From Alphaproteobacteria bacterium (GTDB taxonomy: Bacteria > Pseudomonadota > Alphaproteobacteria > CBDDJK01), in the NCBI GenBank assembly GCA_965229605.1, contig OZ245892.1, positions 1,608,102-1,672,101 on the forward strand: 64,000 nt of DNA. The letters are read 5' to 3'. The notes beneath the pieces are model-generated. The model was not told the DNA's origin. It ran no database searches and saw nothing but the letters and a program-made list of their open reading frames with translations. Shown here piece by piece: positions 27,622 to 49,037 of this stretch. Position 1 is the first letter of the stretch; each line of letters begins with the position of its first letter. A program made the position numbers and the translations under genes.

Positions 27622-27667
27622 TTCCTTAATCCTTATGATGATTATATGCTGTCAATGCCGCTCTTTT

Positions 27668-28804: not shown

Positions 28805-28818
28805 TCTCGTGCTGCCAG

Positions 28819-30803: not shown

Positions 30804-31487
30804 TTACTTGGATTGAGCTCCCTCCACCTGGCTGGCCAGGGCTTTCATCTGCAGATCAAAGCCATCTTGAATATGGTCAATAAAGGCTTCAAGGGCTGCT
30901 GTCTTGTCTCCGGTCGCAACGATATCAACCAGTTCCATATGCGAACCAAGTGAGTCCTCTAAATTCACATTCTCGATAGCTGCAAAAAGACAAAAGGCCA
31001 TTGCCTTTCCCCAGATCATATCGAACATCTCCAGCAAGAACCGGTTGCCCGCCAACTCAATAAAGGCGCGATGAATGTTGCGATTGGCATCAAAATAGGC
31101 TTTGGCTGTTTTGTCTTTGACGGCTTCTTCGCGCTGTACGGTTGCCCTTAGAAAGTCGATGTCTTTTTGGGTATGATTGACGGCTACAATGCGGGCGCAC
31201 TGCCCCTCAATCGCGGCTCTTGACTGGTAGAGCTCGCGTATTTCCTGCGCATCCATCTGATAGAGGCGAAAGCTGCCTCTGGAGGAAACCTCCAGCACAC
31301 CTTCTTGCTCAAGACGCAGAAGGGCTTCGCGCACAGGGGTGCGGCTTATATGCATGTCAGCGGCGATTTTCTCTTGAATCAGGCTATCGGCAGGCCCGAT
31401 TTCCTGATTCATAATGGCATTAATCAGCTGATGATAGACTTCGTCGGCAAGGCGTGTGCGCTGTGGCTGGACAGTTTTGAATTTCAT
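30804..31487 (-). CDS. GntR-family transcriptional regulator (FadR/FCD C-terminal domain)
   Basis: The start MKFKTVQPQRTRLADEVYHQLINAIM… leads into a wHTH (…ISRTPVREALLRLEQEGVL…) and an FCD domain. It is divergent from the amine-catabolic operon. Confidence 0.8.
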   Translation of the reverse strand: MKFKTVQPQRTRLADEVYHQLINAIMNQEIGPADSLIQEKIAADMHISRTPVREALLRLEQEGVLEVSSRGSFRLYQMDAQEIRELYQSRAAIEGQCARIVAVNHTQKDIDFLRATVQREEAVKDKTAKAYFDANRNIHRAFIELAGNRFLLEMFDMIWGKAMAFCLFAAIENVNLEDSLGSHMELVDIVATGDKTAALEAFIDHIQDGFDLQMKALASQVEGAQSK

Positions 31488-31579
31488 AGCAAACCGGCTT
31501 TCGTTGAGTTTTCTGTCGTATACAGTATCCAGAGATACAATCGCAAGCATAATTCAAAATAGAGCTTGAAGATTTGCGC

Positions 31580-31595
31580 ATACTGTATACAGTAT
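31580..31595. promoter_or_regulatory. perfect 16-bp palindrome ATACTGTATACAGTAT, a candidate GntR-family operator
   Basis: It carries a GT-N-AC FadR/GntR-type core, lies in the divergent gntR / mgsA-like intergenic region, and overlaps the promoter and RBS region. Confidence 0.55.
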
Positions 31596-31615
31596 ACAAG
31601 AAAGGAGAATTTACG

Positions 31616-32575
31616 ATGTGCGGAATTGCAGGACGGATCCTCAATAGTCCCGGTAAAGCAGGTCAGGGCAAGGTGGGCCATGACCTGGTTGAATTGATGG
31701 ATGCGCAGGAGCATCGCGGTGCAGACAGCACCGGCTTTGCCATTTACGGTCCGGTGCGCGAGAGCGGTTATGTGCTGCGCGGGATGGGTTTTGCGAAGTC
31801 TTTGATGGAGTCGGACCTTGATGATTTCAAGCATGTCCTTCGCGACCATGGTTCGGACTTTCTTTCGGAGCCCGAGATTCTGGTTGATGAGAACAAACAC
31901 TATTGCTTTCGGATGGAGATTTCTGATCCAAGGAATTTGGCGGGCTGGATTGAGGATGCAGATACTTTGAGCCATCGGATCGAGGTGCAAAGTTGCGGCA
32001 GAAGCTTGGAGATCATCAAGGATATTGGCGGGGCCCGGCAGGTGGCAGACAAACATGGCGTGCGCGAGATGACGGGGACTCACGGGCTTGGACATGCCAG
32101 GCTTGCGACTGAAAGTTCGGTGCTTCCCAATGCGTCGCATCCTTTCTGGGCGAGGCCTTTTTCGGATGTTGCCATCGTTCACAACGGCCAGATAACTGAT
32201 TATTTTACCTGGCGGGAAAAGCTGGAAAGAGCGGGCTATCGTTTCTTGACGGCCAATGATTCAGAGTTGATAGCGGTGTGGGTTTCCGACCAGATGAAGG
32301 CGGGTTTGACCATGGAGCAGGCGCTTAAAAAGTCGATCACGTCGATTGACGGCGTGTTCACCTATATGATTGCGACGACGCAGGGGATTGGCTTTGCAAA
32401 GGACCGTTTTGCGATGAAGCCTCTTGTGGCTATTGACCGGGACGGCGATCTTTCCATGGCGACCGAGGAGCAAGCCGTCCGGCGCATAATCAACGAAGAG
32501 GCAGAGGTAATCAACTATGACGGCCCGTCGCTTACTGGCCTGTGGAGCATTGGAGACTGGAGGCTTGCCGCATGA
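31616..32575 (+). CDS. class II (Ntn) glutamine amidotransferase-like protein (GlxB / MgsA-like)
   Basis: The start MCGIAG has the N-terminal nucleophile Cys. At about 320 aa it is the first of a GlxBCD-like trio. An AAGGAG RBS precedes it. Confidence 0.7.
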   Translation: MCGIAGRILNSPGKAGQGKVGHDLVELMDAQEHRGADSTGFAIYGPVRESGYVLRGMGFAKSLMESDLDDFKHVLRDHGSDFLSEPEILVDENKHYCFRMEISDPRNLAGWIEDADTLSHRIEVQSCGRSLEIIKDIGGARQVADKHGVREMTGTHGLGHARLATESSVLPNASHPFWARPFSDVAIVHNGQITDYFTWREKLERAGYRFLTANDSELIAVWVSDQMKAGLTMEQALKKSITSIDGVFTYMIATTQGIGFAKDRFAMKPLVAIDRDGDLSMATEEQAVRRIINEEAEVINYDGPSLTGLWSIGDWRLAA

Positions 32576-33264
32576 GTAAAGTGGTTATTGACATTGGCAA
32601 TCGCCCGGTCAGGCAAGTCAATGAAGAGATCCTTGAGGCGGTATCTGGGGGGCAGGAAGTCCGGGTTGTGAATACTTTGTCCCGGCATAATCTGGGCGTA
32701 GGCTTGCCGGACAAGGCCAGGATCAGTTTTGAGGGATCGGTTGGCTATTATTGTGGAGGCCTGAATACAGGGGCTGAAATTTCGATAGAGCGCAACTGCG
32801 GGTGGGCGGTTGGCGAGGGGATGTCGAAGGGTCATATCACGGTTGGCGGGCGTGCTGGCATGTCGTGCGGTGCGGCGATGATGGGGGGGACAATCCACGT
32901 TAAGGGGGATACGGGTCCGCGCTGTGGTGTTGCGATGAAAGGCGGGAATATAATTGTTGAAGGCAAGATAGGCTACCAGTCGGGTTTTATGGCACATTCG
33001 GGCAAGATCATTGCGCTTGGCGGCGGCGGAGAAAGCTGCGCCGATGCGCTGTGGCAAGGTGAAGTCTGGGTTGCTGGCGAGGTAGAGAGCTTTGGCGTTG
33101 ATGTTAATGTGGTTGAGCCGACTGCAGAGGAGGTGGCCGAGGTTGATGCACTTCTGGAGCCACTTGGCCTGGTTGACAGCCGTCGTAACTGGCGCAAACT
33201 GGTTTCGGCACAGAGGCTTTGGTATTTTGAATCGAGGGATGCAAGCGCATGGCTGATGATCTGA
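32572..33264 (+). CDS. GXGXG-motif protein (glutamate synthase alpha C-terminal-domain-like; GlxC / MgsB-like)
   Basis: It contains repeated G-x-G motifs (…VGGRAGMSCGAAMMGGTIHVKGDTGPRCGVAMKGGNIIVEGKIG…). The ATG overlaps the upstream stop (ATGA). Confidence 0.7.
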   Translation: MSKVVIDIGNRPVRQVNEEILEAVSGGQEVRVVNTLSRHNLGVGLPDKARISFEGSVGYYCGGLNTGAEISIERNCGWAVGEGMSKGHITVGGRAGMSCGAAMMGGTIHVKGDTGPRCGVAMKGGNIIVEGKIGYQSGFMAHSGKIIALGGGGESCADALWQGEVWVAGEVESFGVDVNVVEPTAEEVAEVDALLEPLGLVDSRRNWRKLVSAQRLWYFESRDASAWLMI

Positions 33265-34679
33265 AAAAATCTTATGACTATCCCTTTGAGTTACCGGATG
33301 AGGAAGAAATCCGCTTTAATGATGCTGGGGCCATTGAAGGCCGTCCGGCAGGTGTTCCAAGTTCGTATGATGAAGGGGGCTCGACCCGCTGGACGCCGGA
33401 GGCAATATCCGAAGTCCATGCGCTGGCACAGCTTGGCCGTTATCAGGTGCGCGGTTACAATACGTTCAATAAAAGGATGCCGACCTTTGATGACCTGACG
33501 TTCGTTCCGGCAACCATGACACGCTTGCCGCTGGAAGGATACCGGGAAAGCTGCGACACCACGACCATTCTGGGAGGCGGTCGCGGACCGGATGTGGTGG
33601 CAAGGCCGCTTGAATTGAAAATACCGATCTATATCGCCTCTATGTCCTTTGGCGCATTGTCGGCCTCGGCAAAGGCGTCACTTGGCTTTGGCGCCTCGAA
33701 AGTCGGCACGATGACCTGTACGGGCGAAGGCGGCATGCTGGAAGAAGAGCGTGAAGCGTCACAAAAACTGGTCTATCAGATGTCACCTGCCCGCTATGGC
33801 ATTGACCTTGATCACCTTAGAAGGGCCGATGGTCTTGAAATCGTTGTCGGACAAGGGGCCAAGCCGGGGACAGGCGGCTTATTGCTTGGCATGAAGGTCA
33901 GTCCCCGTGTCTCGCAGATGCGCACTTTGCCAGAAGGCGTAGACCAACGCTCGACAATTCGACATCCTGATTTCCTGGGTGCCGATGATCTTTCTGTCAA
34001 AATTGAAGAACTTCGGATCGCGACAAATTATCAGGTGCCGATTTCCCTCAAGATGGGCGCGACACGTCCACGCTATGATGTGGCGATTGCTGCCAAGGCC
34101 GGGGCAGATATTATCGTTGTCGACGGGGCCGAGGGGGGAACCGGAGCCTCACCAGAATTATTACTCAATCACACAGGCATTCCCAATATGAGTGCTATTC
34201 GGGCCGCACGCGAAAGCCTTGATGAATGTGGCATGTCCGGCAAGGTCAGCCTTGTGGCTGCGGGCGGTATTCGCTCGGGCGTTGATGCAGCCAAATGTCT
34301 GGCTCTGGGGGCTGATGCTGTGATGATTGGCAATGCCGCAATGATCGCCATGGGCTGTAACTCCCCCCGCTATATTGAGGATTATAAGAAACTCGGCACC
34401 TCGCCGGGGGCCTGTCATCATTGTCATACCGGCATGTGTCCGGTCGGGGTGGCAACTCAGGACCCTGAACTGGAGAAACGCATGAATCCAAAAGCGGGGG
34501 CAGAGCGTGTGGCGCGTTATTTGACAGCGATGACGATGGAAATCACGGCGCTGGCCAAAGCCTGCGGGAAATCATCGGTCCATAATCTTGAAGTTGAGGA
34601 TCTTCGCGCCTTGAGTTTTGAGGCTTCTGCCTTTACCGGGGTGAAGATGGCAGGCATTGATCGAGCCTTTGAGTGGTGA
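33249..34679 (+). CDS. FMN-binding glutamate synthase domain-2 family protein (GlxD / MgsC-like)
   Basis: The protein is 476 aa; …IVVGQGAKPGTGGLLLGMKVS… is a GltB domain-2 signature. It overlaps the upstream gene by 16 nt. Confidence 0.75.
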   Translation: MADDLKKSYDYPFELPDEEEIRFNDAGAIEGRPAGVPSSYDEGGSTRWTPEAISEVHALAQLGRYQVRGYNTFNKRMPTFDDLTFVPATMTRLPLEGYRESCDTTTILGGGRGPDVVARPLELKIPIYIASMSFGALSASAKASLGFGASKVGTMTCTGEGGMLEEEREASQKLVYQMSPARYGIDLDHLRRADGLEIVVGQGAKPGTGGLLLGMKVSPRVSQMRTLPEGVDQRSTIRHPDFLGADDLSVKIEELRIATNYQVPISLKMGATRPRYDVAIAAKAGADIIVVDGAEGGTGASPELLLNHTGIPNMSAIRAARESLDECGMSGKVSLVAAGGIRSGVDAAKCLALGADAVMIGNAAMIAMGCNSPRYIEDYKKLGTSPGACHHCHTGMCPVGVATQDPELEKRMNPKAGAERVARYLTAMTMEITALAKACGKSSVHNLEVEDLRALSFEASAFTGVKMAGIDRAFEW

Positions 34680-34686
34680 TCAAATC

Positions 34687-35379
34687 ATGAAAATTGCTGT
34701 CCTTGATCTGACAACCCATCCCGAGAAATATTTAGGTGGCCTGCCCCGGATTTACACGCAGATTGACCGCTGGCTTTCGCCCTGTCTGCCGGAGGCTGAA
34801 TTGGTGGCCTATGATATTGCGGAAGGCGGTCAAAAACTTCCTTCAACCGCCGACTTTGACGGGCTTGTGGTGAGCGGTTCTGAACTTGGAGTCTATGATG
34901 AAGCGGTCTGGATGCAGCCGCTTCGACGATTATTAAAAGATGCAAAAGCAGCCAAAAAGCCTGTATTCGGCATTTGTTTTGGTCATCAGATCATGGCAGA
35001 CACCTTTGGCGGAAAAGCAGAAAAGGCAGAAGTGGGCAGCCAGCTGGGCGCAAGGTCATTCACAGATTCAAACGGCAGTAAAATTGATGCCTATGTCTGG
35101 CATCAGGATCAGGTGACAAAAGTGCCACCGGGGGCCAGCGTTGTTGCCTCTGCCAGCTATTGTCCAGTCGCCGCCCTTGACTATGATTTTCCGGCAATGT
35201 CTGTTCAGTTTCACCCTGAATATAGCGAAACTCACCTTCGGGAGCTTTATGACCGGCTCCCTGAAACCATCCTCTCTGAGGAATCGCGCAAGAAAGCCGT
35301 GGAGTCTTTTAAAGGGGTCACCGTTCCCGCTGATCTTCATGCGCAGGAAGTCGCGGCTTTTTTCAGAAAACATATCTAG
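34687..35379 (+). CDS. class I glutamine amidotransferase-like protein (PuuD/IpuF-like gamma-glutamyl-amide hydrolase candidate)
   Basis: …KPVFGICFGHQIMAD… contains the Cys nucleophile of the GATase1 / peptidase C26 fold, and a C-terminal His/Glu region follows. Confidence 0.6.
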   Translation: MKIAVLDLTTHPEKYLGGLPRIYTQIDRWLSPCLPEAELVAYDIAEGGQKLPSTADFDGLVVSGSELGVYDEAVWMQPLRRLLKDAKAAKKPVFGICFGHQIMADTFGGKAEKAEVGSQLGARSFTDSNGSKIDAYVWHQDQVTKVPPGASVVASASYCPVAALDYDFPAMSVQFHPEYSETHLRELYDRLPETILSEESRKKAVESFKGVTVPADLHAQEVAAFFRKHI

Positions 35380-35388
35380 GATCAGGAG

Positions 35389-36531
35389 CTAACGACCGCT
35401 TGGACTTTCCTTCGGGCTTAATTTGCGGCGACCCTTCACCTTGAAACGCTCCGCCGTGCCATAATCTTTCAGCGCGACACCGGCCACAAAATCGCCGAAC
35501 ACTGGACCATGTTTGAACAGATGCCCGGAGCATCCACCCGCAAACAGAACATTTTTATGCTCAGGATGCCAGTCAACAATGAAATGTGTGTCCGGGGTCA
35601 GGATCACCTGATTAAACTTGGAATCAACCACGCGCTGGCCAATCAGACCCGGCAAACGATGCTGGATATAGCTTCTGGTTTTGTTAAGCGCGTTCTTTTC
35701 AATCAAACGCTCGTCATTATTGATATCAATCGGCGTATGGGGAATGACAACCGCTGCCTTGACCCCCGACCCTTCTGATGACGGAATACCAAAGGACCCC
35801 TGCCCGTGATCAATCCAGCACGGCATATTTTCCATATCAAACTGGTCTGACCCGTCCGGCGTTGACGTATAAAGAACATTAATGCCCATGATAACTGAAA
35901 TTGGCGCGATGGTTTTACGAAACATTTCTGCCATCCAGGCCCCGGTTGCAATCACGATGATATCGGCTTCAAGGGGTTTGCCATCCAGCATCGGGCGTTC
36001 GTTCACATCGGTGGTGACGGTGCCGCGCAGGACCTTTCCACCCTCTTTCTTAAAAAGCGCAAGCGTGGTTATGACACAGCGATGCGCCATCAAAAGTCCC
36101 GCCTCCGGCTCAAACAGCGCATATTGAATTTCATCAACCTTGAACTGAGGAAACCGCGCACGGATATCGGCCTGCGAAAACCGGTAATAGGGGACTCCAA
36201 CCTTGTCAAACGTCTGCGAGGTTGCATCCTCCCAGTCGCAATGCCCCCCGGTCGCAAGGATCAGGGCCCCGCATTCATACATCAGGTTCTGGCCGGTTTC
36301 GGCCTGCAATTCCAGCCAGCGAGACCGGCTTTCACGCGCCCAGCGTGTGTAGAATTCATCGCGCCCGGAAATCGCCCGGATAACCCGGTTATAGTCGCTG
36401 GAGGCGGCTCTTGCATGGCCGGGCTCCCAACGGTCGATCAAGGTCACCTGCGCGCCCCGGCGCTGAAGATGAAGGGCCGTCATGGTGCCAGCAATGCCGC
36501 CACCGACAACATAAACTTTTTCTCTTAGCAT
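35389..36531 (-). CDS. FAD-dependent oxidoreductase (DadA / PuuB / sarcosine-oxidase-beta family)
   Basis: The start MLREKVYVVGGGIAGTMTALHL gives a GxGxxG dinucleotide fold. The longer ORF to 36597 reads through the operator palindrome and I rejected it. Confidence 0.7.
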   Translation of the reverse strand: MLREKVYVVGGGIAGTMTALHLQRRGAQVTLIDRWEPGHARAASSDYNRVIRAISGRDEFYTRWARESRSRWLELQAETGQNLMYECGALILATGGHCDWEDATSQTFDKVGVPYYRFSQADIRARFPQFKVDEIQYALFEPEAGLLMAHRCVITTLALFKKEGGKVLRGTVTTDVNERPMLDGKPLEADIIVIATGAWMAEMFRKTIAPISVIMGINVLYTSTPDGSDQFDMENMPCWIDHGQGSFGIPSSEGSGVKAAVVIPHTPIDINNDERLIEKNALNKTRSYIQHRLPGLIGQRVVDSKFNQVILTPDTHFIVDWHPEHKNVLFAGGCSGHLFKHGPVFGDFVAGVALKDYGTAERFKVKGRRKLSPKESPSGR

Positions 36532-36549
36532 GCTAAAATCACCCTTGCC

Positions 36550-36577
36550 GTATACTGTATAATTGTATACAGTATAC
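36550..36577. promoter_or_regulatory. inverted repeat GTATACTGTATA-ATTG-TATACAGTATAC, the same operator motif, between the FAD oxidoreductase (-) and the GS-like/BMC operon (+)
   Basis: The 12-bp arms are reverse complements of each other and share ACTGTATAC with the 31580 site. A weaker copy, cgtatacagtatcc, lies at 31517-31530. Confidence 0.55.
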
Positions 36578-36684
36578 AAAATGCAGCTTATTGGCAAGCC
36601 CTGTGCCAGAGTATAATAAAGAGATGATAGCGCATAATAAAGGCATCATAGGGCGCAATAACGAGCTAAAAAGGGAGGACTAAC

Positions 36685-37992
36685 ATGCCAGATCAAGATT
36701 TTTCACTGCCAGAAGGGACACATACCGTTGTTCTGGGTTTAGGCGATCTTAACGGGATCATGCGCGGCAAGCGCATACCTTCAAGCCATTGGGACACCAT
36801 CTGCAAAAACGGCAATGCCTTGTCTATTGCGCTTTTTGCATTGGATATGACGTGTGATGTCTGGGATACGCCCTATGTCAATTTTGATAACGGCTATCCT
36901 GACATGCATATGTTCCCGTCAACCAAGCCGATTGCGCTGCCCTGGGAGCCCGGGGTTGCCATGGCATTTGCCCGCGTTGAGGGCATGGACCATAAGCCTG
37001 TTCCGATTGACCCGCGCAATGCGCTTGTTTCTCAGGTGGAGCGTGCAGAAAAGATGGGATTTACGCTTCAGGTCGGGACCGAGCTGGAGTTTCATCTGCT
37101 TGACCCGGAAACGCTGGAGCCAAGAGATCAGGGCATTCAGGTGTACGGTCTGGAACGGGCAGCCGAGCTTGAGCATGTTCTTGGCCCCATCAGACGCCAG
37201 ATCAACGAATGCGGGATTCCGATTGAACAATCGAACCCGGAATATGCGCCGGGCCAGGTTGAGGTGAATATCCGCTATGCGGATGCGCTGCTTGCGGCTG
37301 ACCGGGTTGTGATGTTCCGCACGCTGGTCAAGCAGTTGGCGGCTGCCCATGGCTACAAGGCGACATTTATGGCCAAACCGTTTTTTGAACATTCCGGCAA
37401 TGGTTTCCATGCCCATTATTCTCTCTGGAAAGACGGCAAGAATACTTTTGCCAATGGGGGGAAGCTGAGCGACACGGGTCGTCATTTCCTTGGTGGTATG
37501 CAAAGCCGGATGGCTGAAAATGCGGTCTGTGGCTCTGCCACGGTCAATGGCTATCGCCGCCGCCAGCCTTTCAGTTTCTGCCCGATTAACACAAGCTGGG
37601 GCATCGACAACCGCACGGTCGGCCTGCGCGTGATTGAAGGCAGTGACAGTGCGGTGCGGGTTGAAAAGCGTGATGCGGGGGCGGATTGCAATCCCTATTA
37701 TCTGCTGGCAGCCGATATTGCTGCGGGTCTTGATGGCATAGAGAAATCTATCGAGCCCGGCCCGATATGTGAAGGCAACGGGTATGAACTGGAAGATGAA
37801 CCGCCGATTCCGACTGATCTTGGCACGGCCATCAAGCTGGCCCGGGAGTCGGACTGGTTAAAGAATGTGATGGGCGAGATGCGCTGGGAGCTTTACCTGC
37901 AACAAAGTGAAAGGGAGCTGGCGTTTTTCAACGATTATCTTGCCAATCAGGTGACATCGCATGAGCGCGCGCGGTATTTGAGTAATTTCTGA
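36685..37992 (+). CDS. glutamine synthetase family protein (GmaS/PuuA-like gamma-glutamyl-amide synthetase candidate)
   Basis: The protein is 435 aa with a GS catalytic-domain region (…NPEYAPGQVEVNIRYADAL…FMAKPFFEHSGNGFHAHYSLW…). Its size matches GmaS-type GS-III-like enzymes. Confidence 0.8.
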   Translation: MPDQDFSLPEGTHTVVLGLGDLNGIMRGKRIPSSHWDTICKNGNALSIALFALDMTCDVWDTPYVNFDNGYPDMHMFPSTKPIALPWEPGVAMAFARVEGMDHKPVPIDPRNALVSQVERAEKMGFTLQVGTELEFHLLDPETLEPRDQGIQVYGLERAAELEHVLGPIRRQINECGIPIEQSNPEYAPGQVEVNIRYADALLAADRVVMFRTLVKQLAAAHGYKATFMAKPFFEHSGNGFHAHYSLWKDGKNTFANGGKLSDTGRHFLGGMQSRMAENAVCGSATVNGYRRRQPFSFCPINTSWGIDNRTVGLRVIEGSDSAVRVEKRDAGADCNPYYLLAADIAAGLDGIEKSIEPGPICEGNGYELEDEPPIPTDLGTAIKLARESDWLKNVMGEMRWELYLQQSERELAFFNDYLANQVTSHERARYLSNF

Positions 37993-38264
37993 TGAAGCTT
38001 GCGATTGTCACAGGAACGGTTACGGCAACGGCGAAAGACCCGCAGCTTGTGGGTCAGAAGCTGCTGGTTTGCGACTGCATTGATGCGTCGGGAAAGGTGA
38101 CGGAGCCTGCCCTGGTTGCAACCGATTCACTTGGTGCTGGTGTTGGCAACAAGGTCCTGGTTGTTACAGGCTCTGCTGCCAGAATGCTGAGCGGCACGTC
38201 TGGTGTGCCGGTGGATGCGGCGATATGCGGAATTATTGATCAGGTTGAAGTAAAATCTAAATAG
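37992..38264 (+). CDS. bacterial microcompartment vertex (pentamer) protein, EutN/CcmL/PduN family (BMC-P)
   Basis: [29 protein letters not shown]…[22 protein letters not shown] is the classic PF03319 pattern. The ATG overlaps the GS-like stop (TGATG). Confidence 0.85.
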
Positions 38265-38284
38265 TTAACCAAAGGAGAAATAAA

Positions 38285-38581
38285 ATGGCTAAACCAACCC
38301 CCGGGCAAGCAGCCCTTGGTATGATTGAGACTCGCGGTCTTGTAGCTTCGATGGAAGCGGCGGATGCGATGGTGAAGGCTGCGAGTGTAAATATTGTGGC
38401 CCAGCATAGAGCGGGCGGCGGTCTTGTTGCGACGCTGGTGCGTGGAGAGGTCGGCGCGGTTAAAGCGGCGACTGATGCGGGCGCGACGGCTGCCAACAAG
38501 GTTGGCGAGGTTGTATCGGTTCATGTGATTGCCCGCCCGCATGACGAGCTTGAGGCGATTATAGACGGTCTTTCCGGCTAG
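38285..38581 (+). CDS. bacterial microcompartment shell hexamer protein, PduA/EutM/CcmK type (BMC-H)
   Basis: …[29 protein letters not shown]…[15 protein letters not shown]…[10 protein letters not shown] is the PF00936 signature. A strong AAGGAG RBS precedes it. Confidence 0.9.
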
Positions 38582-38613
38582 GCATCAAGTGACAAGCAAT
38601 CGCGGCCCCCATA

Positions 38614-39816
38614 ATGAGTTCGGGCATGAGTTCGGAATTTATTGAGTTTGCTGAAGCCGCCGCAGCGGGTCGGAAGGGCGCAGAAGCCGCTCCCCGGCTC
38701 AATTTGCAAAAAGTGGCTGTTTTGGGCGGGCAGGCTGATGCCCGGCTTTTTGCCGGACTTTGCCTTTCAGAAGGGGCAGAGGTCACGCTTTTTTCGGCTT
38801 ACGGCAGCGAGCTTTCTGCACTGCGTAGCGGGTCCGGTATAAGCCTGCGCGGAGCCGGACCGGTCGGGGTTTATCAGGTTGACCGCAAAGACAGCCCGTC
38901 GGTTCGCTTGACGGCCGAGCTTGATGTGGCGGTAAATGATGCGGACCTCATCTTTCTGACCGGCCCCATTCATAAACAGCGCACCTATGCGATGGTGCTG
39001 GCCGATCACCTTAAAGACGGTCAGGTGCTTGTCCTTTGCCCCGGCAGATCATTGGGGGCTTTAGAAACCGCCTGGATGCTGCGCATTGGGGGGTGTCGTG
39101 CGGACATTACCATTGTTGAAATTCAGGGACTTCCCTACTGGATTGCTCAGGAAGGGTCGGTGCTGCATTTAAGCGAACGCGGAAAGCTGCAAACTGCCAC
39201 CCTGCCCAGAAACCGCCCCGCTGTTGTTGAGGCACTCAACCGCTTCTTTCCTCATCTTCACCCCGTGGACAATGTGCTTGCATCAGGCTTTTCAGACGGC
39301 TCTGCACTGGTCGAATTTCCAGCCCTGCTTTTAGGTGGCCCGGCCATGGGGTCCGGTGCCTTGAAAATCCCGATGGGCGGAACACCACTTGAAGAGAACA
39401 CGAATTTTGCCAATCTGATTGGTTCTGAACAACGCACTTTAATTGAAAAGCTGGCAGCCGAACGCATCGCCGTTGCCGAAAGGTTCGGGGTGCGCATAAT
39501 GCCTGACGTTGATTCATGGATAGACTCATACGCCGGGGCCAGCAAAGGAAGCGGCTGCCGACCGGTGCCGGGTGCAGAAGAAGCAAAAGCGATTTTGCGG
39601 GATGGCGTGATCGGTTCACTGGTGCCTTTGATTTCTGCGGCAGAGCTTGCCGGGGTCGATGTTCCACTCACGCGCTCCATGGTCACAATCGCGTCAAACC
39701 TGTTGGGCGCAGATATCGCTTCTGCCGGGCGGCGGCTGGATACGATTGGCATTCGCGACAATGAACTGGACAGTGCCAGGCTGCGGATGGATGAAATTGC
39801 GACAGGAAATGCATAA
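38614..39816 (+). CDS. NAD(P)-binding opine-dehydrogenase-like / ApbA-N-like protein of unknown function
   Basis: The Rossmann N-terminus is KVAVLGGQADARLFAG, and the 400-aa size and pattern recall octopine/nopaline dehydrogenase-like proteins. The N-terminal SEFIEFAEAAAAGRKG looks like an amphipathic helix followed by a linker. Confidence 0.35.
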   Translation: MSSGMSSEFIEFAEAAAAGRKGAEAAPRLNLQKVAVLGGQADARLFAGLCLSEGAEVTLFSAYGSELSALRSGSGISLRGAGPVGVYQVDRKDSPSVRLTAELDVAVNDADLIFLTGPIHKQRTYAMVLADHLKDGQVLVLCPGRSLGALETAWMLRIGGCRADITIVEIQGLPYWIAQEGSVLHLSERGKLQTATLPRNRPAVVEALNRFFPHLHPVDNVLASGFSDGSALVEFPALLLGGPAMGSGALKIPMGGTPLEENTNFANLIGSEQRTLIEKLAAERIAVAERFGVRIMPDVDSWIDSYAGASKGSGCRPVPGAEEAKAILRDGVIGSLVPLISAAELAGVDVPLTRSMVTIASNLLGADIASAGRRLDTIGIRDNELDSARLRMDEIATGNA

Positions 39817-41195
39817 TGGATGCTGACCTGAAATCAATCGCTGCCGCCAGACATTGTGCGGAAACGGCTTTCCAGGCCTATCAGCAGTTTCTTGGGACAG
39901 AGGTATCGCAGGTTGATGCGATTGTTCAGGCCATGGCCGAGGCGATTGACCCGGAAGCCGCACGGCTTGGGAAAATGGCGGCAGATGAAACCGGCTACGG
40001 TAATGCCGAACATAAGCGGATCAAGGACCTGATGAATGCCAGAGGCACCGCAAGCTGGCTAAGAGAAGTTAAAACGCTGGGGCTTTTGTGGCGGGACGAT
40101 GCCACCAAAGTCGCTGCTTTTGGTGAACCGATGGGGGTTGTCGCCGCCTTGATTCCGGTGACCAACCCGACCTCGACCATCATCTTCAAGGTCTTGTCTG
40201 CGGTGAAGGCAGGCAATGCTATCGTCTGCGCCCCGCATCCACGTGCGGTGAAATGCGGAATTGAAGTCATTAAAATCATGTCCACCGTCGCAGAACAGAT
40301 GGGCGCCCCGAAAGGGCTTATCCAATGTCTGGATCAGGTAACCATTCAGGGCACAGCGGAACTCATGAGCCACCGCAGAACATCGGTTGTGATGGCAACC
40401 GGTGGACCCGCCATGGTGAAAGCGGCCTATTCAAGCGGCAAACCGACGCTGGCAGTGGGGGCAGGCAATGTGCCCTGTTATGTTCATAAATCCATGCGCG
40501 GTGAACTCGCAGAAGTCGCGGCACAGATCGTCGCGTCAAAATCATTCGACTATGGCACCGCTTGCGTGGCGGAACAGGCCGTCATTGCGGACCCTGAAAT
40601 CGCACGCGACCTGCGCCATGAACTCAAACTGGCCGGGGCTTATTTCTGCACGCCGGGCGAAGCGGACCGGCTGGCAAAAGTTATTTTCACCGGCAAACAG
40701 ACCATGGACCCTGCCCGTGTCGGTCAGTCTCCATTCGTGCTCGCCGAATGTGCAGGATTTTCCATCCCGCCAAAAACCACCTGTCTTGTCAGCAACGAAA
40801 CCGAAATTGGCTGGAACCGGCCTTTGTCTGCTGAAAAACTCAATCCGGTGCTGGCCTTCTATGAAGCCCGAGACGGTGATCATGGCGTCGAACTGGCGAA
40901 CAAAATTGCAAAATTCGGCGGGTGGGGACATTCATCTGTCGTCCATACGCATGATCCTCAAATTATTGCAAAATTTTCCCGTATTCCGACCGCCCGCGTG
41001 CTGGTCAATGTGCCCGCCCTTCATGGCGGGGCGGGCTATGCAACCGACCTGGAACCCTCCTTTATGCTGGGAACGGGGACCTGGTCCGGGTCCATGACAT
41101 CAGACAATGTCACCGCTTTGCACCTGATCAATATCAAACGGGTCGCCTATGGAAATCGACCCTGGCGAGACATTTATGAGGAGTACGGGGTTTGA
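39816..41195 (+). CDS. CoA-acylating aldehyde dehydrogenase (EutE/PduP family)
   Basis: The protein is 459 aa. …VVMATGGPAMVKAAYSSGKPTLAVGAGNVP… and the catalytic Cys context (…DYGTACVAEQAV…) are typical of BMC-associated acylating ALDH. The start overlaps the upstream stop (TAATG). Confidence 0.8.
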   Translation: MDADLKSIAAARHCAETAFQAYQQFLGTEVSQVDAIVQAMAEAIDPEAARLGKMAADETGYGNAEHKRIKDLMNARGTASWLREVKTLGLLWRDDATKVAAFGEPMGVVAALIPVTNPTSTIIFKVLSAVKAGNAIVCAPHPRAVKCGIEVIKIMSTVAEQMGAPKGLIQCLDQVTIQGTAELMSHRRTSVVMATGGPAMVKAAYSSGKPTLAVGAGNVPCYVHKSMRGELAEVAAQIVASKSFDYGTACVAEQAVIADPEIARDLRHELKLAGAYFCTPGEADRLAKVIFTGKQTMDPARVGQSPFVLAECAGFSIPPKTTCLVSNETEIGWNRPLSAEKLNPVLAFYEARDGDHGVELANKIAKFGGWGHSSVVHTHDPQIIAKFSRIPTARVLVNVPALHGGAGYATDLEPSFMLGTGTWSGSMTSDNVTALHLINIKRVAYGNRPWRDIYEEYGV

Positions 41196-41815
41196 GCAAT
41201 ATAACCATCCGCGCCATGATGCAGATTGACAATCTGCAACCAAAATTTGCTGCCTATAACGGGGCAACGGTTCAAGGGTCCATTCCGCTTTCAGGCGACA
41301 CCGTCCTTATCGGTGAACTGGCCCCGGGCAACGGCGTTTTTGGCCTGATTGACCGGGCCTTGAAAGCCTCGGCGGTTGAAGCCACCTCCCAGATCGTTGA
41401 ACGGGAATTTGGCTTTTTCATCCTGCGCTCGCCGTCCAATGCCGAAGTCAGCATGGCCAGAGATTCTATCCTGTCCGAACTTGGCGCGACCCTGTCTGAT
41501 CGCCTTAAACCTGAAATCAGCTCAACCCAGATTATCACCTCGGTTGAACCCCATCAGGCACAGCTTCTCAACAAATGGCGAAAAGGGTCGCTTCTGGTTC
41601 CCGGACAAACCCTCGGCATTATCGAATGTGCGCCTGCGGCCTATATTTCGATTGCGGCAAACGAGGCCGAAAAAGCCGCAGAAATAGATATGGTCGAAAT
41701 CCGTGCGGTTGGACGCTTTGGTCGGCTTTTTATCTCGGGGTCGGAAAATTCGGTAAAGACCGCCGTTGAGGCCGCCATTAAAGCCATTGATGCCGTTGAT
41801 GGAAAATCCGGCTAA
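41192..41815 (+). CDS. tandem-BMC-domain shell protein (BMC-T)
   Basis: The protein is 207 aa with two BMC-like halves. The second half, …GIIECAPAAYISIAANEAEKAAEIDMVEIRAVGRFGRLFISGSENSVKTAVEAAI…, fits the BMC fold. The start is a TTG overlapping the ALDH stop (or the ATG at 41216). Confidence 0.65.
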   Translation: MSNITIRAMMQIDNLQPKFAAYNGATVQGSIPLSGDTVLIGELAPGNGVFGLIDRALKASAVEATSQIVEREFGFFILRSPSNAEVSMARDSILSELGATLSDRLKPEISSTQIITSVEPHQAQLLNKWRKGSLLVPGQTLGIIECAPAAYISIAANEAEKAAEIDMVEIRAVGRFGRLFISGSENSVKTAVEAAIKAIDAVDGKSG

Positions 41816-43002
41816 TGGCAGGACGAATTGTCGGATCGGAACTGATTGAGGATGCCCGCCAGCGCGGACGGATCGTCTTTGAAGTGCTGCCTGATGATAT
41901 CATCACCGCGCTTGCCCGGGAAACTGCCGAGCGTCTTGGCATAAAGCTGGTAAACGGGCCCATCGAAAAACCCGCCGCTGTCAGGACAGATGGACAGTCT
42001 GCAATGCGGCGTGGATTATATCGGCGCGGCGCAAAATGGGTGGCCCCACGCAGATCGCTTTCTGCGACAACCAGACGCTTTACAAAAATCGGCCTGATCG
42101 GGGCTGGAGGCGTTGGCACCAACATTGCCCATCTGGCCGCCATGAGCGATATGGCAGACGAAATCACGCTGGTTGATATTGCACCGGGCATTGCGGCGGC
42201 AACCGCGCTTGATCTCAATCACGCCAGCGGCATCACCCGAAGCCGCGCCCGCTGCATCGGCAGTGAAGACCTGAGTGCTATTTCCGGGTCAGATGTTGTC
42301 GTTGTAACGGCTGGAAGGGCGCGCACGCCTGGCATGAGTCGCAGTGATTTAATTGAAACAAATGCACGGGTCATTCGTTCTGCTGGCGAGGCGATAAAAA
42401 CGGTCGCCCCCCATGCCATCGCCCTTGTTGTCACCAATCCGCTTGATGAAATGACTGTCGAGATGTTGCGGGCAACCGGTTTTCCACGAGAACGGGTGCT
42501 TGGCATGGCTGGCACACTTGATTCCAGCCGCTTCAGACATGCGCTTGCCCGGGCAGCCGGAGTCACGCCAGCAGATGTTGAAGCGATTACGCTTGGCAGC
42601 CATGGCGAGGAAATGGCCCCCATCCCTTCCCTGGCCCGGATCAAAGGACGTGCGCTCACAACCTGTTTGAGCGAGGATCAGATTAACGCCTGTGTTCAAG
42701 AGGCGGTGACAGGTGGCGGACAGGTTGTTGCGTTGAAAAAATCCGGTTCCGCCACAATCGCGCCCGCCCATGCAACCATCGAGATTATGAATCATCTGCG
42801 GGGTGCCCTTAGTGGATCTGTGCCTGTATCGGTGATGCTCAAGGGGGAATATGGGATTTCCGATGTCGTTTTGGGGGTACCAGCGCATCTTGGGCAGAGT
42901 GGCTTGCTGGAAGTTGAAGAATTGCGCCTTTCTGAACAGGAATTGACCGCACTCAGAAAAGCGGCAGGTGCGATCAAAGAACGTATCGGGATAAACGGAT
43001 GA
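41815..43002 (+). CDS. L-lactate/malate dehydrogenase family protein with an about 95-aa N-terminal extension
   Basis: The LDH/MDH core runs from KIGLIGAGGVGTNIA…ITLVDI…VVVTAGRARTPGMSRSDL…LDSSRFRHAL. The N-terminal about 95 aa (MAGRIVGSELIEDARQRGRIVFEVLPDDIITALARETAERLGIKLV…) is not part of the LDH fold. The start overlaps the BMC-T stop (TAATG). Confidence 0.75.
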   Translation: MAGRIVGSELIEDARQRGRIVFEVLPDDIITALARETAERLGIKLVNGPIEKPAAVRTDGQSAMRRGLYRRGAKWVAPRRSLSATTRRFTKIGLIGAGGVGTNIAHLAAMSDMADEITLVDIAPGIAAATALDLNHASGITRSRARCIGSEDLSAISGSDVVVVTAGRARTPGMSRSDLIETNARVIRSAGEAIKTVAPHAIALVVTNPLDEMTVEMLRATGFPRERVLGMAGTLDSSRFRHALARAAGVTPADVEAITLGSHGEEMAPIPSLARIKGRALTTCLSEDQINACVQEAVTGGGQVVALKKSGSATIAPAHATIEIMNHLRGALSGSVPVSVMLKGEYGISDVVLGVPAHLGQSGLLEVEELRLSEQELTALRKAAGAIKERIGING

Positions 43003-43403
43003 TTATCAAACACCGAGCCGGTGGACGGTTTGAGGAAATCGGGTCCTATTCGCGGGCAAAGCGGGTTGGCCCCTTTGTTTATGTGGCTGGCACGACTGCC
43101 ATCGAACCAAGCGGGAAACTGCATGCCCCCGGCGATACCTATGCGCAATCAATCTTTATTCTGGGACGCATTGAAAATGCCTTAAAGGAAGTTGGCGCAA
43201 ATCTGACCCATGTGGTCCGCACCCGCGCCTATTTGACGGATATGTCGCAGGCTGGTGGCTTTGTTCGTGCGCATGGCGAGGTTTTTAAATATATTGATCC
43301 GGTGCTGACAGGCGTTGAAGCCGGACTGACCCAGCCCGGCATGATGGTCGAAATTGATGTCGATGCCATCATTCATAATGCCGATGGCGTGATCGACTAT
43401 TAG
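42999..43403 (+). CDS. ridA: RidA family (YjgF/L-PSP) reactive enamine/imine deaminase
   Basis: The protein is 134 aa; …VYVAGTTAIEP…AQSIFILGRIENALKEVGANLTHVVRTRAYLTDM… is the RidA signature. The ATG overlaps the upstream stop (ATGA). Confidence 0.8.
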   Translation: MIIKHRAGGRFEEIGSYSRAKRVGPFVYVAGTTAIEPSGKLHAPGDTYAQSIFILGRIENALKEVGANLTHVVRTRAYLTDMSQAGGFVRAHGEVFKYIDPVLTGVEAGLTQPGMMVEIDVDAIIHNADGVIDY

Positions 43404-43418
43404 GGACCCAAACCTGGT

Positions 43419-44126
43419 TCACGCCCCAAAATAACTTTTTGCCAGCATATCATCTTTGGACAATTCTGCCGCCGTTCCACTCGCCGTTATATGTCCGCTT
43501 TCCAGCACATATAATCTCTGGGCAAGCGAAAGGGCAAAATTCGCATTTTGCTCGGTCACAATAACCGTCAGGCCAAACTCGGCACTCAATCGCTTTAAAA
43601 CCTCGGCAATCTCCAGACAGATTTTTGGCGCAAGACCTATCGTCGGCTCGTCAACCAGAAGAATCCTCGGCGAGGTCATCATGGCCCGGCCCAGCGAAAC
43701 CATCTGACGCTCTCCACCAGACTGGGTTGAGGTCTCCTGATTTTTGCGCTCCGCAAGACGCGGAAACAACTGCTCAACGGCTGCAAGATTTTTCGCGATA
43801 TCGTCTCTTGCGCTATAGGCTCCGACAAGCAAATTATCGCGCACCGACATATGGGGAAAGAGATTAAAACGCTCCGGCGCATAGCCAAGACCCTGCTCAA
43901 CCATATATTTTGGCTTCTTGCCTGTGACATCAATACCCTCCAGCTTGATCGTCCCACGGCACGAAACCAGCCCCATGATACTATCCAGAAGCGTCGATTT
44001 GCCAGCCCCGTTTGCGCCAACAATCGCAATGGTTTCCCCCTCCTCAACATGCAAATTAATATCCGTGAGGGCTTGAGCCTTGCCGTAAAAAGCACTCAGA
44101 TTTTCAATCTCGAGCAATGACATCAA
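43419..44126 (-). CDS. ABC transporter ATP-binding protein, LivF-type (branched-chain amino acid/amide family)
   Basis: Walker A GANGAGKSTLL and the LSGGERQ signature are present. The protein is 235 aa. Confidence 0.8.
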   Translation of the reverse strand: MMSLLEIENLSAFYGKAQALTDINLHVEEGETIAIVGANGAGKSTLLDSIMGLVSCRGTIKLEGIDVTGKKPKYMVEQGLGYAPERFNLFPHMSVRDNLLVGAYSARDDIAKNLAAVEQLFPRLAERKNQETSTQSGGERQMVSLGRAMMTSPRILLVDEPTIGLAPKICLEIAEVLKRLSAEFGLTVIVTEQNANFALSLAQRLYVLESGHITASGTAAELSKDDMLAKSYFGA

Positions 44127-44854
44127 GCGGCTCCCAGGTAAGAGGAACGCACAGATTCATCCGCAAGAACATCCTTGAAGCTGCCTTGTGCCAGCAAGCT
44201 GCCGCGCTCAATCGCAAGGGCACGGTCCACAAGCGGCTCCATCGCCGGAAGATCATGACTGACCATCAAAAAGGTGAAACCGTCCTTGCGCAGCTTTTGA
44301 ATGACCTCTGATATCATGGAAATTTCACCCCGGGTGAGACCGGCAAACACCTCGTCCAGCAAGAGTATTTTTGCCCCCGTCGCCAATGTACGCGCAAATT
44401 CAAGTTTGCGCAGATCCCCCATCGCAAGCTCAGAAACCTGCCGCTCAAGGTCTGTGGGCGAAAAACCAACAGCTTCAGCAAGTTCCTGTTCTTTATTGAG
44501 ATCGCTTTTGGCAAAAATCATCCGCAAAATACTGTCCGGCATAAGACCCACCCGAATATTCTCCCGAACCGTCAGGTCCCCAAAAGGCTTGGGTACCTGA
44601 TAGGTGCGGCTCACCCCTTTTGAAATCCTCTGCGCCGTGCCAAGCTTTGAAATCTCCTTGCCAAACAATTTGATCGACCCGCTGGTCTGAATATGCTCCC
44701 CCATAATCAAGGAGAAAATCGTGGTCTTGCCTGCACCATTCGGGCCAATCAGACCCAGCGACTCGCCTTCAAACAGATCAAAACTCAGATCATTGGTAGC
44801 AACCAGCCCGCCAAACTTCTTGACCAGATTGCGCACCTCAATGACAGCACTCAT
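44123..44854 (-). CDS. ABC transporter ATP-binding protein, LivG-type
   Basis: The start MSAVIEVRNLVKKFGG follows a GAGGGG RBS, and Walker A GPNGAGKTT is present. I rejected the longer ORF to 44992. Confidence 0.8.
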   Translation of the reverse strand: MSAVIEVRNLVKKFGGLVATNDLSFDLFEGESLGLIGPNGAGKTTIFSLIMGEHIQTSGSIKLFGKEISKLGTAQRISKGVSRTYQVPKPFGDLTVRENIRVGLMPDSILRMIFAKSDLNKEQELAEAVGFSPTDLERQVSELAMGDLRKLEFARTLATGAKILLLDEVFAGLTRGEISMISEVIQKLRKDGFTFLMVSHDLPAMEPLVDRALAIERGSLLAQGSFKDVLADESVRSSYLGAA

Positions 44855-45795: not shown

Positions 45796-45807
45796 TTAAT
45801 TTTCTGC

Positions 45808-46659: not shown

Positions 46660-46733
46660 TGATTTTAAACCTGTTGATAGATAAGGGCGATCATTTGACC
46701 GCCCTTATCTTGCACATATAGGTCTTGCACAGG

Positions 46734-48921: not shown

Positions 48922-49037
48922 CTCGCAAGCCGTTTTATTTTTATTGCATTTGGAGCCGCAGAATGTATGAATAGGCTTATGTATACATGGATACATGCCC
49001 GTGTAAAGCCCCGGAATAAAGCCCTTGTGTAACGCCG

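Follow-up and report, generated by a model that had tools for sequence, protein, structure and literature searches.

What could a bacterial microcompartment be used for when its shell genes lie beside a glutamine-synthetase-family gene and a glutamate-synthase-like trio, and are accompanied by none of the classical signature enzymes? This question is raised by a locus in a stretch of 64,000 nucleotides, hereafter called the window, from contig OZ245892.1 of an Alphaproteobacteria bacterium, marine and Rhizobiaceae-like (GenBank assembly GCA_965229605.1, positions 1,608,102 to 1,672,101 of the forward strand). The window is chromosomal, since it holds the genes for RpoD, DnaG, AspRS, SHMT and SdhA. 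A first-pass annotation of this DNA had proposed that an amine is coupled to glutamate by enzymes encoded next to the shell genes, and that an aldehyde is then released and trapped in the shell. We report that the locus belongs to MIC2 ('metabolosome with incomplete core'), that a shared operator and conserved gene order point to a regulon reaching well beyond the shell genes, and that the conversion of an amine via a gamma-glutamyl amide, an N-alkylglutamate and an aldehyde into an acyl-CoA would remain the best model for its function.

Gene content and the MIC2 type

The open reading frames (ORFs) of the 64-kb window were listed and compared by profile searches with Pfam (at gathering thresholds), NCBIfam and the PDB. 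Every gene named in the first-pass annotation was recovered in its place and above the Pfam gathering threshold. The shell genes are real; BMC-P, BMC-H and BMC-T all score well above their Pfam thresholds. The earlier gene list was incomplete: it had overlooked an opine-dehydrogenase-fold protein, a malate-dehydrogenase-type protein and a RidA-family protein inside the interval 30804-43403, as well as an importer. The three overlooked proteins within the interval are the enzymes most likely to be encapsulated or linked to the lumen, and the conserved system extends past 43403 to the importer, which is of the Liv type. Independent gene calls on a 2.5-Mb ENA contig of 98% identity (L081) give the same gene set, including a regulator of 227 amino acids. 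The genes are as follows:

30804-31487, minus strand: GntR/FCD regulator of 227 amino acids, ORF open up to 31550 (Pfam GntR 54 bits, FCD 82 bits)
31616-32575, plus strand: GlxB/MgsA-like Ntn (class II) amidotransferase (GATase_6 59.6 bits, GATase_7 54.5 bits)
32572-33264, plus strand: GlxC/MgsB-like subunit with GXGXG motif (Pfam GXGXG 62 bits; a gene call of 230 amino acids in L081)
33249-34679, plus strand: GlxD/MgsC-like flavin mononucleotide (FMN) subunit, GltB domain 2 (Pfam Glu_synthase 329 bits)
34687-35379, plus strand: class-I glutamine-amidotransferase-like protein (GATase1), candidate gamma-glutamyl-amide hydrolase, accessory (GATase 75 bits, Peptidase_C26 36.6 bits)
35389-36531, minus strand: FAD oxidoreductase of the DAO family, like monomeric sarcosine oxidase (MSOX) (Pfam DAO 159 bits)
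36685-37992, plus strand: glutamine-synthetase (GS)-family ligase at the head of the shell operon, candidate synthetase of gamma-glutamyl amines (Pfam Gln-synt_C, PF00120, 294 bits)
37992-38264, plus strand: BMC-P pentamer (vertex) shell protein (PF03319 EutN_CcmL 96 bits, cutoff 25)
38285-38581, plus strand: BMC-H hexamer shell protein (PF00936 87 bits, cutoff 24.5; EutM-like 113 bits)
38626-39816, plus strand: opine-dehydrogenase (ODH)-fold protein of the 6PGDH superfamily with an N-terminal helix like an encapsulation peptide (EP), candidate signature enzyme (Octopine_DH, PF02317, 34.5 bits, cutoff 30)
39816-41195, plus strand: coenzyme A (CoA)-acylating aldehyde dehydrogenase (ALDH) without EP (Pfam Aldedh, PF00171, 80 bits; EutE-type TIGR02518 474 bits)
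41192-41815, plus strand: BMC-T, tandem and permuted, like CcmP/CsoS1D (BMC-Tdp; PF00936 42 bits, cutoff 24.5; NCBIfam CcmP 202 bits, below its cutoff of 340)
41815-43002, plus strand: malate dehydrogenase (MDH)-type enzyme with an 89-residue domain like the EutQ N-terminus (Ldh_1_N begins at residue 90)
42999-43403, plus strand: RidA-family imine/enamine deaminase, closing the shell operon (Pfam Ribonuc_L-PSP 78 bits)
43419-48020, minus strand: LivF-LivG-LivM-LivH-LivK-type ATP-binding cassette (ABC) importer of the HAAT family (two ABC_tran, two BPD_transp_2, Peripla_BP_6), with genes at 43419-44123, 44123-44854, 44854-45795 and 45808-46659 and the substrate-binding protein at 46734-48020 (gene calls also in L081)
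48112-48921, minus strand: alpha/beta-hydrolase between an operator-like site and LivK (Abhydrolase_1 90 bits; PcaD-like 107-123 bits, below the cutoffs)

MIC2 was defined by Sutter, Melnicki, Schulz, Woyke & Kerfeld (2021, Nat Commun 12:3809, Supplementary Data 2; PMC8217296), at that time with 22 loci from Acidithiobacillia, Alpha- and Gammaproteobacteria and two Actinobacteria. Its features are an AldDh without EP, a lactate/malate dehydrogenase (PF02866) whose EutQ-like N-terminal extension measures about 70 residues, a 6PGDH-superfamily protein carrying a short helical EP at its N-terminus, a GS of family PF00120, and a single BMC-H, a single BMC-P and a single BMC-Tdp (PMC8217296). The window locus is of this type: all five gene-content features are present and the taxonomy agrees. 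The catalogue gives MIC2 neither a function nor a substrate, and its list of profile models holds none for the Glx trio, GATase1, RidA or a Liv binding protein, the only DAO model being that of MIC6 (PMC8217296). The MIC2 text is likewise silent on the trio, an MSOX-like oxidase, RidA, an amide hydrolase, a transporter and a regulator. Full-text searches of the literature accessible without subscription gave no paper that proposes a function for MIC2 or links a microcompartment with N-methylglutamate, opine dehydrogenase or gamma-glutamylation. The novelty implied by the first-pass annotation is therefore not supported in that form. The annotation was right that this is no classical metabolosome, but a shell paired with a GS-family enzyme had already been catalogued as MIC2.

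Relatives were collected by scanning one genome per species with the ODH-like protein of the window; 140 were found, and 80 loci were taken, with 55-72% identity. No EutBC, PduCDE, glycyl-radical enzyme, PduL/Pta or iron-dependent alcohol dehydrogenase is present among the large annotated ORFs between 26.6 and 52.6 kb, which agrees with the earlier statement that the classical PDU, EUT and GRM signature enzymes, PduL and this alcohol dehydrogenase are missing. Nor do the genes shared by the 80 related loci include any of these enzymes. From 18.7 to 52.6 kb, the large annotated ORFs hold no additional PF00936 or PF03319 protein. In L081, the counterpart of BMC-T matches PF27545 (CsoS1D_N) plus BMC.

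Among the catalogued types, the MIC2 AldDh is phylogenetically closest to that of MIC1, then to that of RMM1 (PMC8217296). MIC1 shares an MDH-type enzyme with the same N-terminal domain, and RMM1, MIC1 and MIC2 all have a BMC-Tdp. RMM1 likewise degrades an amine, 1-amino-2-propanol. However, RMM1 obtains its aldehyde with a kinase and a class-III aminotransferase-like phospho-lyase, and MIC1 has a zinc-dependent alcohol dehydrogenase and a HAD hydrolase, none of which occurs in the window locus; conversely, the GS/Glx module is found in neither RMM1 nor MIC1.

A shared operator and a conserved gene order

GS belongs to the shell operon, since its stop codon shares 1 nucleotide with the start codon of BMC-P (TGATG). 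Overlaps of 1-4 nucleotides are also found at the ODH/ALDH, ALDH/BMC-T, BMC-T/MDH and MDH/RidA junctions, and the remaining gaps from GS to RidA measure 20-44 nucleotides; we therefore consider these genes as one operon. Scans for promoter and terminator consensus sequences were uninformative, and no riboswitch or other Rfam match was found in the locus. A palindromic sequence is repeated at its intergenic regions:

31516-31599, between GntR and GlxB: predicted operator copies, a degenerate one at 31516-31532 (upstream of the GntR start) and one at 31576-31599 with the exact sequence TGTATACAGTATACAA at 31584-31599
36563-36579, in the divergent DAO/GS region: predicted operator with the exact TGTATACAGTATACAA at 36564-36579
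48980-48995, upstream of the hydrolase-Liv operon: operator-like site TGTATACATGGATACA, tentative, with a half-site spacing off by 1 nucleotide

The exact 16-mer TGTATACAGTATACAA occurs twice in the window, and 7 matches are obtained with up to 3 mismatches versus 0.09 expected from shuffled sequence. Across the related loci the consensus is the 20-bp palindrome GTATACTGTATACAGTATAC. When the 80 loci (1.43 Mb) were scanned at up to 3 mismatches, matches were found in the DAO/GS region of 76, at GntR/GlxB (56) and between RidA and LivK (48), with 11 in all other places together. This distribution indicates that the Glx operon, the flavoprotein gene, the shell operon and the importer form one regulon, with GntR as the predicted regulator. 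The DAO/GS operator is kept even in loci without an adjacent Glx trio, which suggests that the regulator, and probably the trio too, are encoded elsewhere in those genomes.

Gene order is conserved too. In tblastn comparisons of the 80 loci, the order DAO(-)/GS-P-H-ODH-ALDH-T-MDH-RidA is invariant wherever the contig allows it to be followed (P, H and T being the shell genes). In every locus with a contig long enough to include it, the flavoprotein gene occurs and is transcribed divergently from GS. RidA is kept at the end of the operon in all loci reaching that position, and three deeply diverged loci (L083, L086, L087) have a RidA gene as well. The genes for GntR, GlxB, GlxC and GlxD lie directly upstream in 40 of the 59 loci with a full upstream flank, and the GntR gene adjoins the trio in every trio-bearing locus. 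A conserved substitute for the upstream trio was sought in the 19 loci without it and none was found. GlxD is among the best-conserved proteins of the system (80-95% identity across loci, and 70% in the deep locus L083), and GlxB orthologues are 68-84% identical across related loci. GATase1 is present in 26 of the 40 trio-bearing loci and reaches only 42-65% identity. The Liv transporter follows RidA in about 50 of the 80 loci (60-86% identity), mostly in the same orientation and with the operator in front of it; in the window and in L018 its orientation is inverted.

Beyond these genes, all-versus-all clustering of the ORFs of the 80 loci revealed no other conserved enzyme; all it added was a small Cys-rich protein, found in 15 loci, and scattered SDR genes. 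The Cys-rich protein, of about 116 amino acids (cluster c20; L033 6488-6838), is encoded between the GATase1 and flavoprotein genes and is absent from the window. Its gene is closely preceded by an operator-like site in the four Ruegeria loci (L033, L048, L062, L066).

The family has grown far beyond the 22 loci of 2021, with 140 species-level genomes and 613 protein clusters. Its hosts are marine and comprise Rhodobacterales (Ruegeria, Sulfitobacter, Amylibacter, Aliishimia), Hyphomicrobiales (Hoeflea, Nitratireductor, Ahrensia, Microbaculum) and Gammaproteobacteria (Granulosicoccus, Halioglobus, Chromatiales); sponge-associated Rhodobacter metagenome-assembled genomes are also among the carriers. 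The ODH-like family itself is small: when 1.84 billion representative proteins were scanned in full with HMMER, 49 matched at E<=1e-30. The deeply diverged loci are arranged as follows, with the identity of their ODH-like protein to that of the window:

P0276 contig, 33%: GS-P-H-ODH-ALDH
L083, 32%, GC content 64.5%: GGACT, RidA, GntR, GlxBCD, DAO(-), GS-P-H-ODH-ALDH
L086, 42%: GntR-GlxBCD downstream of RidA
L087, 39%: GlxBCD with an APC-family amino-acid permease, GntR, RidA, DAO(-), GS-P-H-ODH-ALDH-T-MDH, an unannotated ORF of 68 amino acids, amidase

Even at 32-42% identity of the ODH-like protein, GntR, GlxBCD, the MSOX-like oxidase, GS and RidA thus accompany the shell genes. What differs by lineage is the transporter family (ABC or APC) and the amide-cleaving family, which is GATase1, GGACT (PF06094, L083) or amidase (PF01425, L087). 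In L083, the gene at 1005-1445 encodes a GGACT-family (gamma-glutamylamine-cyclotransferase-like) protein that replaces the GATase1 of the window. In L087, an APC-family permease with a DUF3156 partner and an amidase (3927-5309 and 14586-15749) replace the ABC transporter and GATase1.

These data bear on the possibility that the GntR, Glx and GATase1 genes are just an ordinary nitrogen-assimilation cluster which happens to lie beside an unrelated MIC2 locus. Such a coincidence would fit with the separate transcript of the trio and with its absence within 10 kb upstream in 19 of the 59 loci. It does not fit with an identical operator at both promoters, conserved in 76 of the 80 loci and present at DAO/GS even where no trio is adjacent, nor with a linkage that persists where the trio is inverted (L046 and L050, in which it stays adjacent), where it has moved downstream of RidA (L086) and in deeply diverged loci (L083, L087). 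Because of these operator and synteny data, we consider chance adjacency as effectively excluded and this explanation as extremely improbable. The Glx genes are tied to the shell genes, as the first-pass annotation had supposed, rather than transcribed as an independent and unrelated unit.

Enzymes and possible routes from amine to acyl-CoA

The precedent for the proposed chemistry is the established N-methylglutamate pathway, with its enzymes GmaS and MgsABC. Following this precedent, a primary amine or another amino compound with a free amine would be imported, by the Liv-type ABC system here and by the APC permease in the other lineage. The GS-family ligase would join the amine to the gamma-carboxyl of glutamate in an ATP-dependent manner. 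GlxBCD, homologous to the N-methylglutamate synthase MgsABC, would then turn the gamma-glutamyl amide into an N-substituted glutamate with release of ammonia, while an accessory amide hydrolase (GATase1 here, the product of a GGACT-family or amidase gene elsewhere) could free the amine again. Oxidative cleavage of the amine-side C-N bond would yield glutamate and an aldehyde. Two candidates may be considered for this fourth step: the ODH-fold protein, which bears an EP, is translationally coupled to the ALDH and is probably located inside the shell, and the MSOX-like flavoprotein, which keeps the carboxylate-binding residues. Inside a shell with a single BMC-P, a single BMC-H and a single BMC-Tdp, the acyl-CoA would be made by the CoA-acylating ALDH, and the MDH, targeted to the lumen by its EutQ-like domain, would re-oxidise NADH by reducing oxaloacetate to malate, in the form of which reducing equivalents would be exported. 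RidA would clear reactive imine and enamine by-products.

We favour this overall model, a route like the N-methylglutamate pathway that ends in an aldehyde-trapping metabolosome, at about even chances of being right. Our confidence in any specific assignment of the aldehyde-forming enzyme is substantially lower. A more elaborate proposal is that MIC2 constitutes a new functional class of metabolosome, in which glutamate serves as covalent carrier of the amine through GmaS/MgsABC-like enzymes, an encapsulated, neofunctionalised ODH-fold enzyme frees the aldehyde from N-substituted glutamate within the shell, and an MDH, in place of an alcohol dehydrogenase, regenerates lumenal NAD+ by a malate/oxaloacetate shuttle across the shell, without need for a phosphotransacylase. 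We put it forward tentatively, as a possibility that is on the whole somewhat doubtful.

The likeness to the N-methylglutamate pathway (GmaS, MgsABC, MgdABCD) lies in a GS-family ligase encoded together with a three-subunit GltB-derived enzyme, followed by an enzyme that could cleave an N-alkyl group oxidatively. The three-subunit synthase of that pathway, with its Ntn amidotransferase starting at Cys1, its GXGXG subunit and its FMN subunit, is matched in the window at the level of domains only; the GlxB product begins with MCGIAG and its mature N-terminus is a Cys. There are also differences. The window GS scores below the cutoff of the GmaS/GSIII-type equivalog. The heterotetrameric MgdABCD is absent from the locus and from the conserved genes of the 80 loci, and monomeric MSOX-like and ODH-fold proteins are found instead. 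Moreover, the product would pass to a CoA-acylating ALDH in a protein shell, and not to folate-linked one-carbon metabolism.

The GS scores below the NCBIfam cutoffs for GS type III/GlnT (TIGR03105, 237 versus 469.6 bits), GlnA (208 versus 429) and PuuA (NF045547, 207 versus 650). The PDB entries of GmaS give 136-145 bits and that of an uncharacterised GS gives 190; this protein is roughly equidistant from all solved relatives. Methylamine, ethylamine, ethanolamine, 1-amino-2-propanol/aminoacetone, taurine, 2-aminoethylphosphonate, polyamines, lysine (via an intermediate like saccharopine) and marine opines were considered as substrates, none of them being favoured by the available tests. The best indirect evidence for a gamma-glutamyl amide as intermediate is that three unrelated amide-cleaving families have been recruited to the locus.

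This recruitment in different lineages would also be expected if the system worked like the Puu pathway. GS would then gamma-glutamylate the amine, the flavoprotein would, as PuuB does, oxidise the far end of the glutamylated compound to a gamma-glutamyl aldehyde that is oxidised in the compartment, and the hydrolase would free glutamate like PuuD; no N-substituted glutamate would be formed on the way, and the Glx trio would serve for nitrogen salvage only. Indeed, the kinds of enzyme that constitute the Puu set are all encoded here (a GS, a DAO-family flavoprotein, an ALDH, and a hydrolase like class-I GATase/Peptidase_C26), GS and flavoprotein are a universal divergent pair, and in both the Puu (gamma-glutamylputrescine) and Ipu (isopropylamine) systems a GS-family ligase activates the amine, whose glutamyl group can be taken off by a hydrolase resembling class-I amidotransferases. 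However, the GS reaches only 207 bits against the 650 for gamma-glutamylputrescine synthetase, and the ALDH 33 bits against the 850 for PuuC (NF007352), being a CoA-acylating enzyme of the EutE/AdhE type; both scores are far below the cutoffs. The flavoprotein is MSOX-like and keeps the binders of an amino-acid carboxylate. Of the 40 trio-bearing loci, 14 lack the hydrolase, whereas the Glx trio, far better conserved (80-95% for the FMN subunit) and with the operator in common, would be left unexplained; trio and shell have no counterpart in Puu or Ipu. We hold this reading to be unlikely.

The first-pass annotation had taken the flavoprotein to be DadA/PuuB-like. It resembles monomeric sarcosine oxidase and N-methyltryptophan oxidase instead: it aligns over its full length with MSOX (PDB 1el5, E=2e-33) and scores 189 bits, below the cutoff of 257, with the NCBIfam model for N-methyl-L-tryptophan oxidase. 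A search for homologues returned close orthologues only. In the 1el5 alignment, Arg49, Arg52, Lys265 and Lys348 are kept, and Arg52, Lys265 and Lys348 are invariant in the orthologues. In this family, Arg52 and Lys348 are the MSOX residues that bind the substrate carboxylate, and the conserved set also includes the oxygen-activation lysine. Cys315, the site of covalent flavin attachment, is replaced by Asn, and His269 and Tyr317 are both replaced by Val. This enzyme is a better chemical counterpart of N-methylglutamate dehydrogenase than the ODH-like protein. Its C-terminus carries an invariant SPSGR tail after a conserved TAERF motif in 57 of 57 orthologues. This tail lies outside the region aligned to sarcosine oxidase and could be a targeting signal or an active-site lid.

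The ODH-like protein was modelled with AlphaFold2 (pLDDT confidence score 85.9) as a helix at residues 3-14, a disordered linker and a two-domain fold. Its best Foldseek match is N-(1-D-carboxyethyl)-L-norvaline dehydrogenase (CENDH, 1bg6; E=5.5e-21, TM-score 0.82), followed by octopine, pseudopaline, staphylopine and yersinopine dehydrogenases and then by ketopantoate reductases. In a phmmer search against the PDB, 1bg6 is matched over the full length (E=1.9e-18), and the identity to opine dehydrogenases is about 23%. Fold over the full length and a PF02317 score above threshold are shared with opine dehydrogenases (CENDH 1bg6, octopine dehydrogenase 3c7a, staphylopine/pseudopaline dehydrogenases), from which the protein differs by its additional N-terminal EP, its replaced catalytic His and the deletion of the segment that contains Arg292 in CENDH. 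The N-terminal motif MSxEFxxFAEA is conserved in the clade; the motif and the variable linker are absent from relatives outside microcompartment loci. These latter relatives have no N-terminal extension and keep the canonical His, as do the deep EP-bearing ones. In the clade, 10-14 residues are inserted after the His position. Since the catalytic His is replaced and the clade has both an insertion and a deletion near the active site, the protein is a neofunctionalised member of the fold and no canonical opine dehydrogenase. Given its EP and its translational coupling to an ALDH that lacks one, it probably acts in the lumen directly before the ALDH.

These relationships raise the possibility of an opine-type metabolism, in which the imported compound would already be a secondary-amine amino acid of the N-(carboxyalkyl) or N-alkyl kind, such as the opines of marine invertebrates or algae. 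The ODH-fold enzyme and the MSOX-like oxidase would be primary, and GS, trio and hydrolase would process the released amine. Opine dehydrogenases are the closest solved relatives of the EP-bearing enzyme, whose deep EP-bearing relatives keep the catalytic His; N-alkyl amino acids are cleaved by enzymes of the MSOX family, whose carboxylate binders are conserved here; HAAT-family binding proteins typically take amino-acid-like ligands; and the carriers are marine, including the sponge-associated Rhodobacter genomes. Canonical opine cleavage, however, gives a 2-oxo acid and thus no aldehyde for the ALDH, the catalytic His is replaced in the window clade, one lineage has an APC permease in place of the ABC system, and the binding protein has no NCBIfam match. 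We regard an opine-type metabolism as improbable.

Returning to the N-methylglutamate-like route, its last steps find their candidates in the ALDH and the MDH. The ALDH scores 416 bits with the acetylating acetaldehyde dehydrogenase 5j78 of the PDB and 448 bits with the N-terminal domain of AdhE, versus only 175 bits with PduP. Its residues 2-456 align with positions 1-454 of the EutE-type model, and it lacks the first 23 or so residues of Escherichia coli EutE, i.e. the N-terminal EP of that enzyme. An ALDH of the acetaldehyde type would be a weak hint towards a small aliphatic aldehyde. The MDH-type protein scores 316 bits with the NCBIfam malate dehydrogenase model NF004863, above the cutoff of 283, and its top 13 PDB matches were all deposited as malate dehydrogenases. 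The motifs AGRARTPGMSR, LDSSRFR and GSHGE are kept in 66 orthologues; the residues that correspond to the MDH-specificity Arg (position 102 in lactate dehydrogenase numbering), R109, D168, R171 and H195 are all conserved. The N-terminal domain resembles the N-terminus of E. coli EutQ weakly (30% identity over 69 residues, pairwise E=0.001). On these grounds, the enzyme is a candidate recycler of lumenal NAD+. The binding protein of the importer has only uncharacterised relatives in the PDB.

Several points weigh against the N-methylglutamate-like route. Its enzyme activities, substrate and compartment are all deduced from genes, and the binding of the GntR protein to the operator is likewise a prediction. 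The trio is not found within 10 kb upstream in 19 of the 59 loci. The GS is a superfamily member that scores below the cutoffs for GlnT/GSIII, GlnA and PuuA, and it is thus only a candidate for the ligation of an amine. In the alpha- and gammaproteobacterial MIC2 clade, the catalytic His of the ODH-like protein (CENDH His202, in the motif N-x3-x-H-P) is replaced by Glu or Asp; it is a Glu in the window, in the motif VEFP, and the invariant E230 in A1. The dinucleotide-binding motif is also atypical (GGQADA in the window). This protein may thus catalyse a different chemistry or be partly structural. In addition, enzymes of the opine-dehydrogenase/ketopantoate-reductase fold normally act at the carboxylate-bearing carbon. 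With such chemistry, an N-alkylglutamate would yield 2-oxoglutarate and the amine, and no aldehyde. The alternative candidate, the MSOX-like enzyme, carries no recognisable EP, and its AlphaFold2 model (pLDDT 54.7) is too poor to judge the C-terminal tail. Finally, no CoA-recycling enzyme is conserved across the 80 loci.

Neighbouring genes and significance

A family-III CoA-transferase gene (49038-50258, plus strand) is divergent from the alpha/beta-hydrolase gene at the operator-like site; it scores 472 bits with the succinate-glutarate CoA-transferase model, below the cutoff of 750. The hydrolase, present in L081 and not in the other 80 loci, and the transferase may have joined the regulon in this lineage only, and the transferase could be relevant to the recycling of CoA, for which an enzyme is missing. 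On the other side of the locus, just upstream of the GntR gene (26659-30348, minus strand), three genes encode an aldo-keto reductase, the alpha subunit of a Rieske oxygenase (GbcA-like, with 126 bits far under the cutoff) and an AMP-forming acyl-CoA ligase. The oxygenase and the ligase are also found in L081, where the fetched stretch ends before the reductase; none of the three was found beside the locus in the other related genomes. AMP-forming ligase, Rieske oxygenase, aldo-keto reductase, alpha/beta-hydrolase and CoA-transferase were all considered as core parts of the system and rejected, as these neighbours are not conserved across the related loci. Farther away, the window encodes an unusually long DnaA-like protein of 619 residues (18707-20566, plus strand) with a Bac_DnaA ATPase domain and a C-terminal helix-turn-helix, adjoining a gene with an acyltransferase domain. 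A single ORF at 51658-52632 (plus strand) combines a Fic/DOC domain with a C-terminal MerR-type helix-turn-helix. A tRNA gene at 54893-54966 (minus strand; 72.7 bits) is the sole Rfam match above the gathering score in the window.

About a dozen catalogued microcompartment types have no assigned function, and MIC2 is among them. What is added here is a regulon, an extended gene set and an inferred cargo comprising the ODH-fold protein, the ALDH and the MDH. Cultured carriers exist in six genera, among them Ruegeria profundi ZGT108, Ruegeria sp. ANG-R, Hoeflea alexandrii, Hoeflea poritis E7-10, Sulfitobacter aestuariivivens TSTF-M16, Aliishimia ponticola MYP11, Microbaculum marinum and Nitratireductor sp. 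XY-223. If the proposed route is true, the catabolism of amines via an N-substituted glutamate would join the known uses of bacterial microcompartments, and the MDH would represent a new mode of lumenal NAD+ recycling. The system is common in marine Rhodobacterales, Hyphomicrobiales and host-associated Gammaproteobacteria, and it may thus bear on the turnover of organic nitrogen in the sea.

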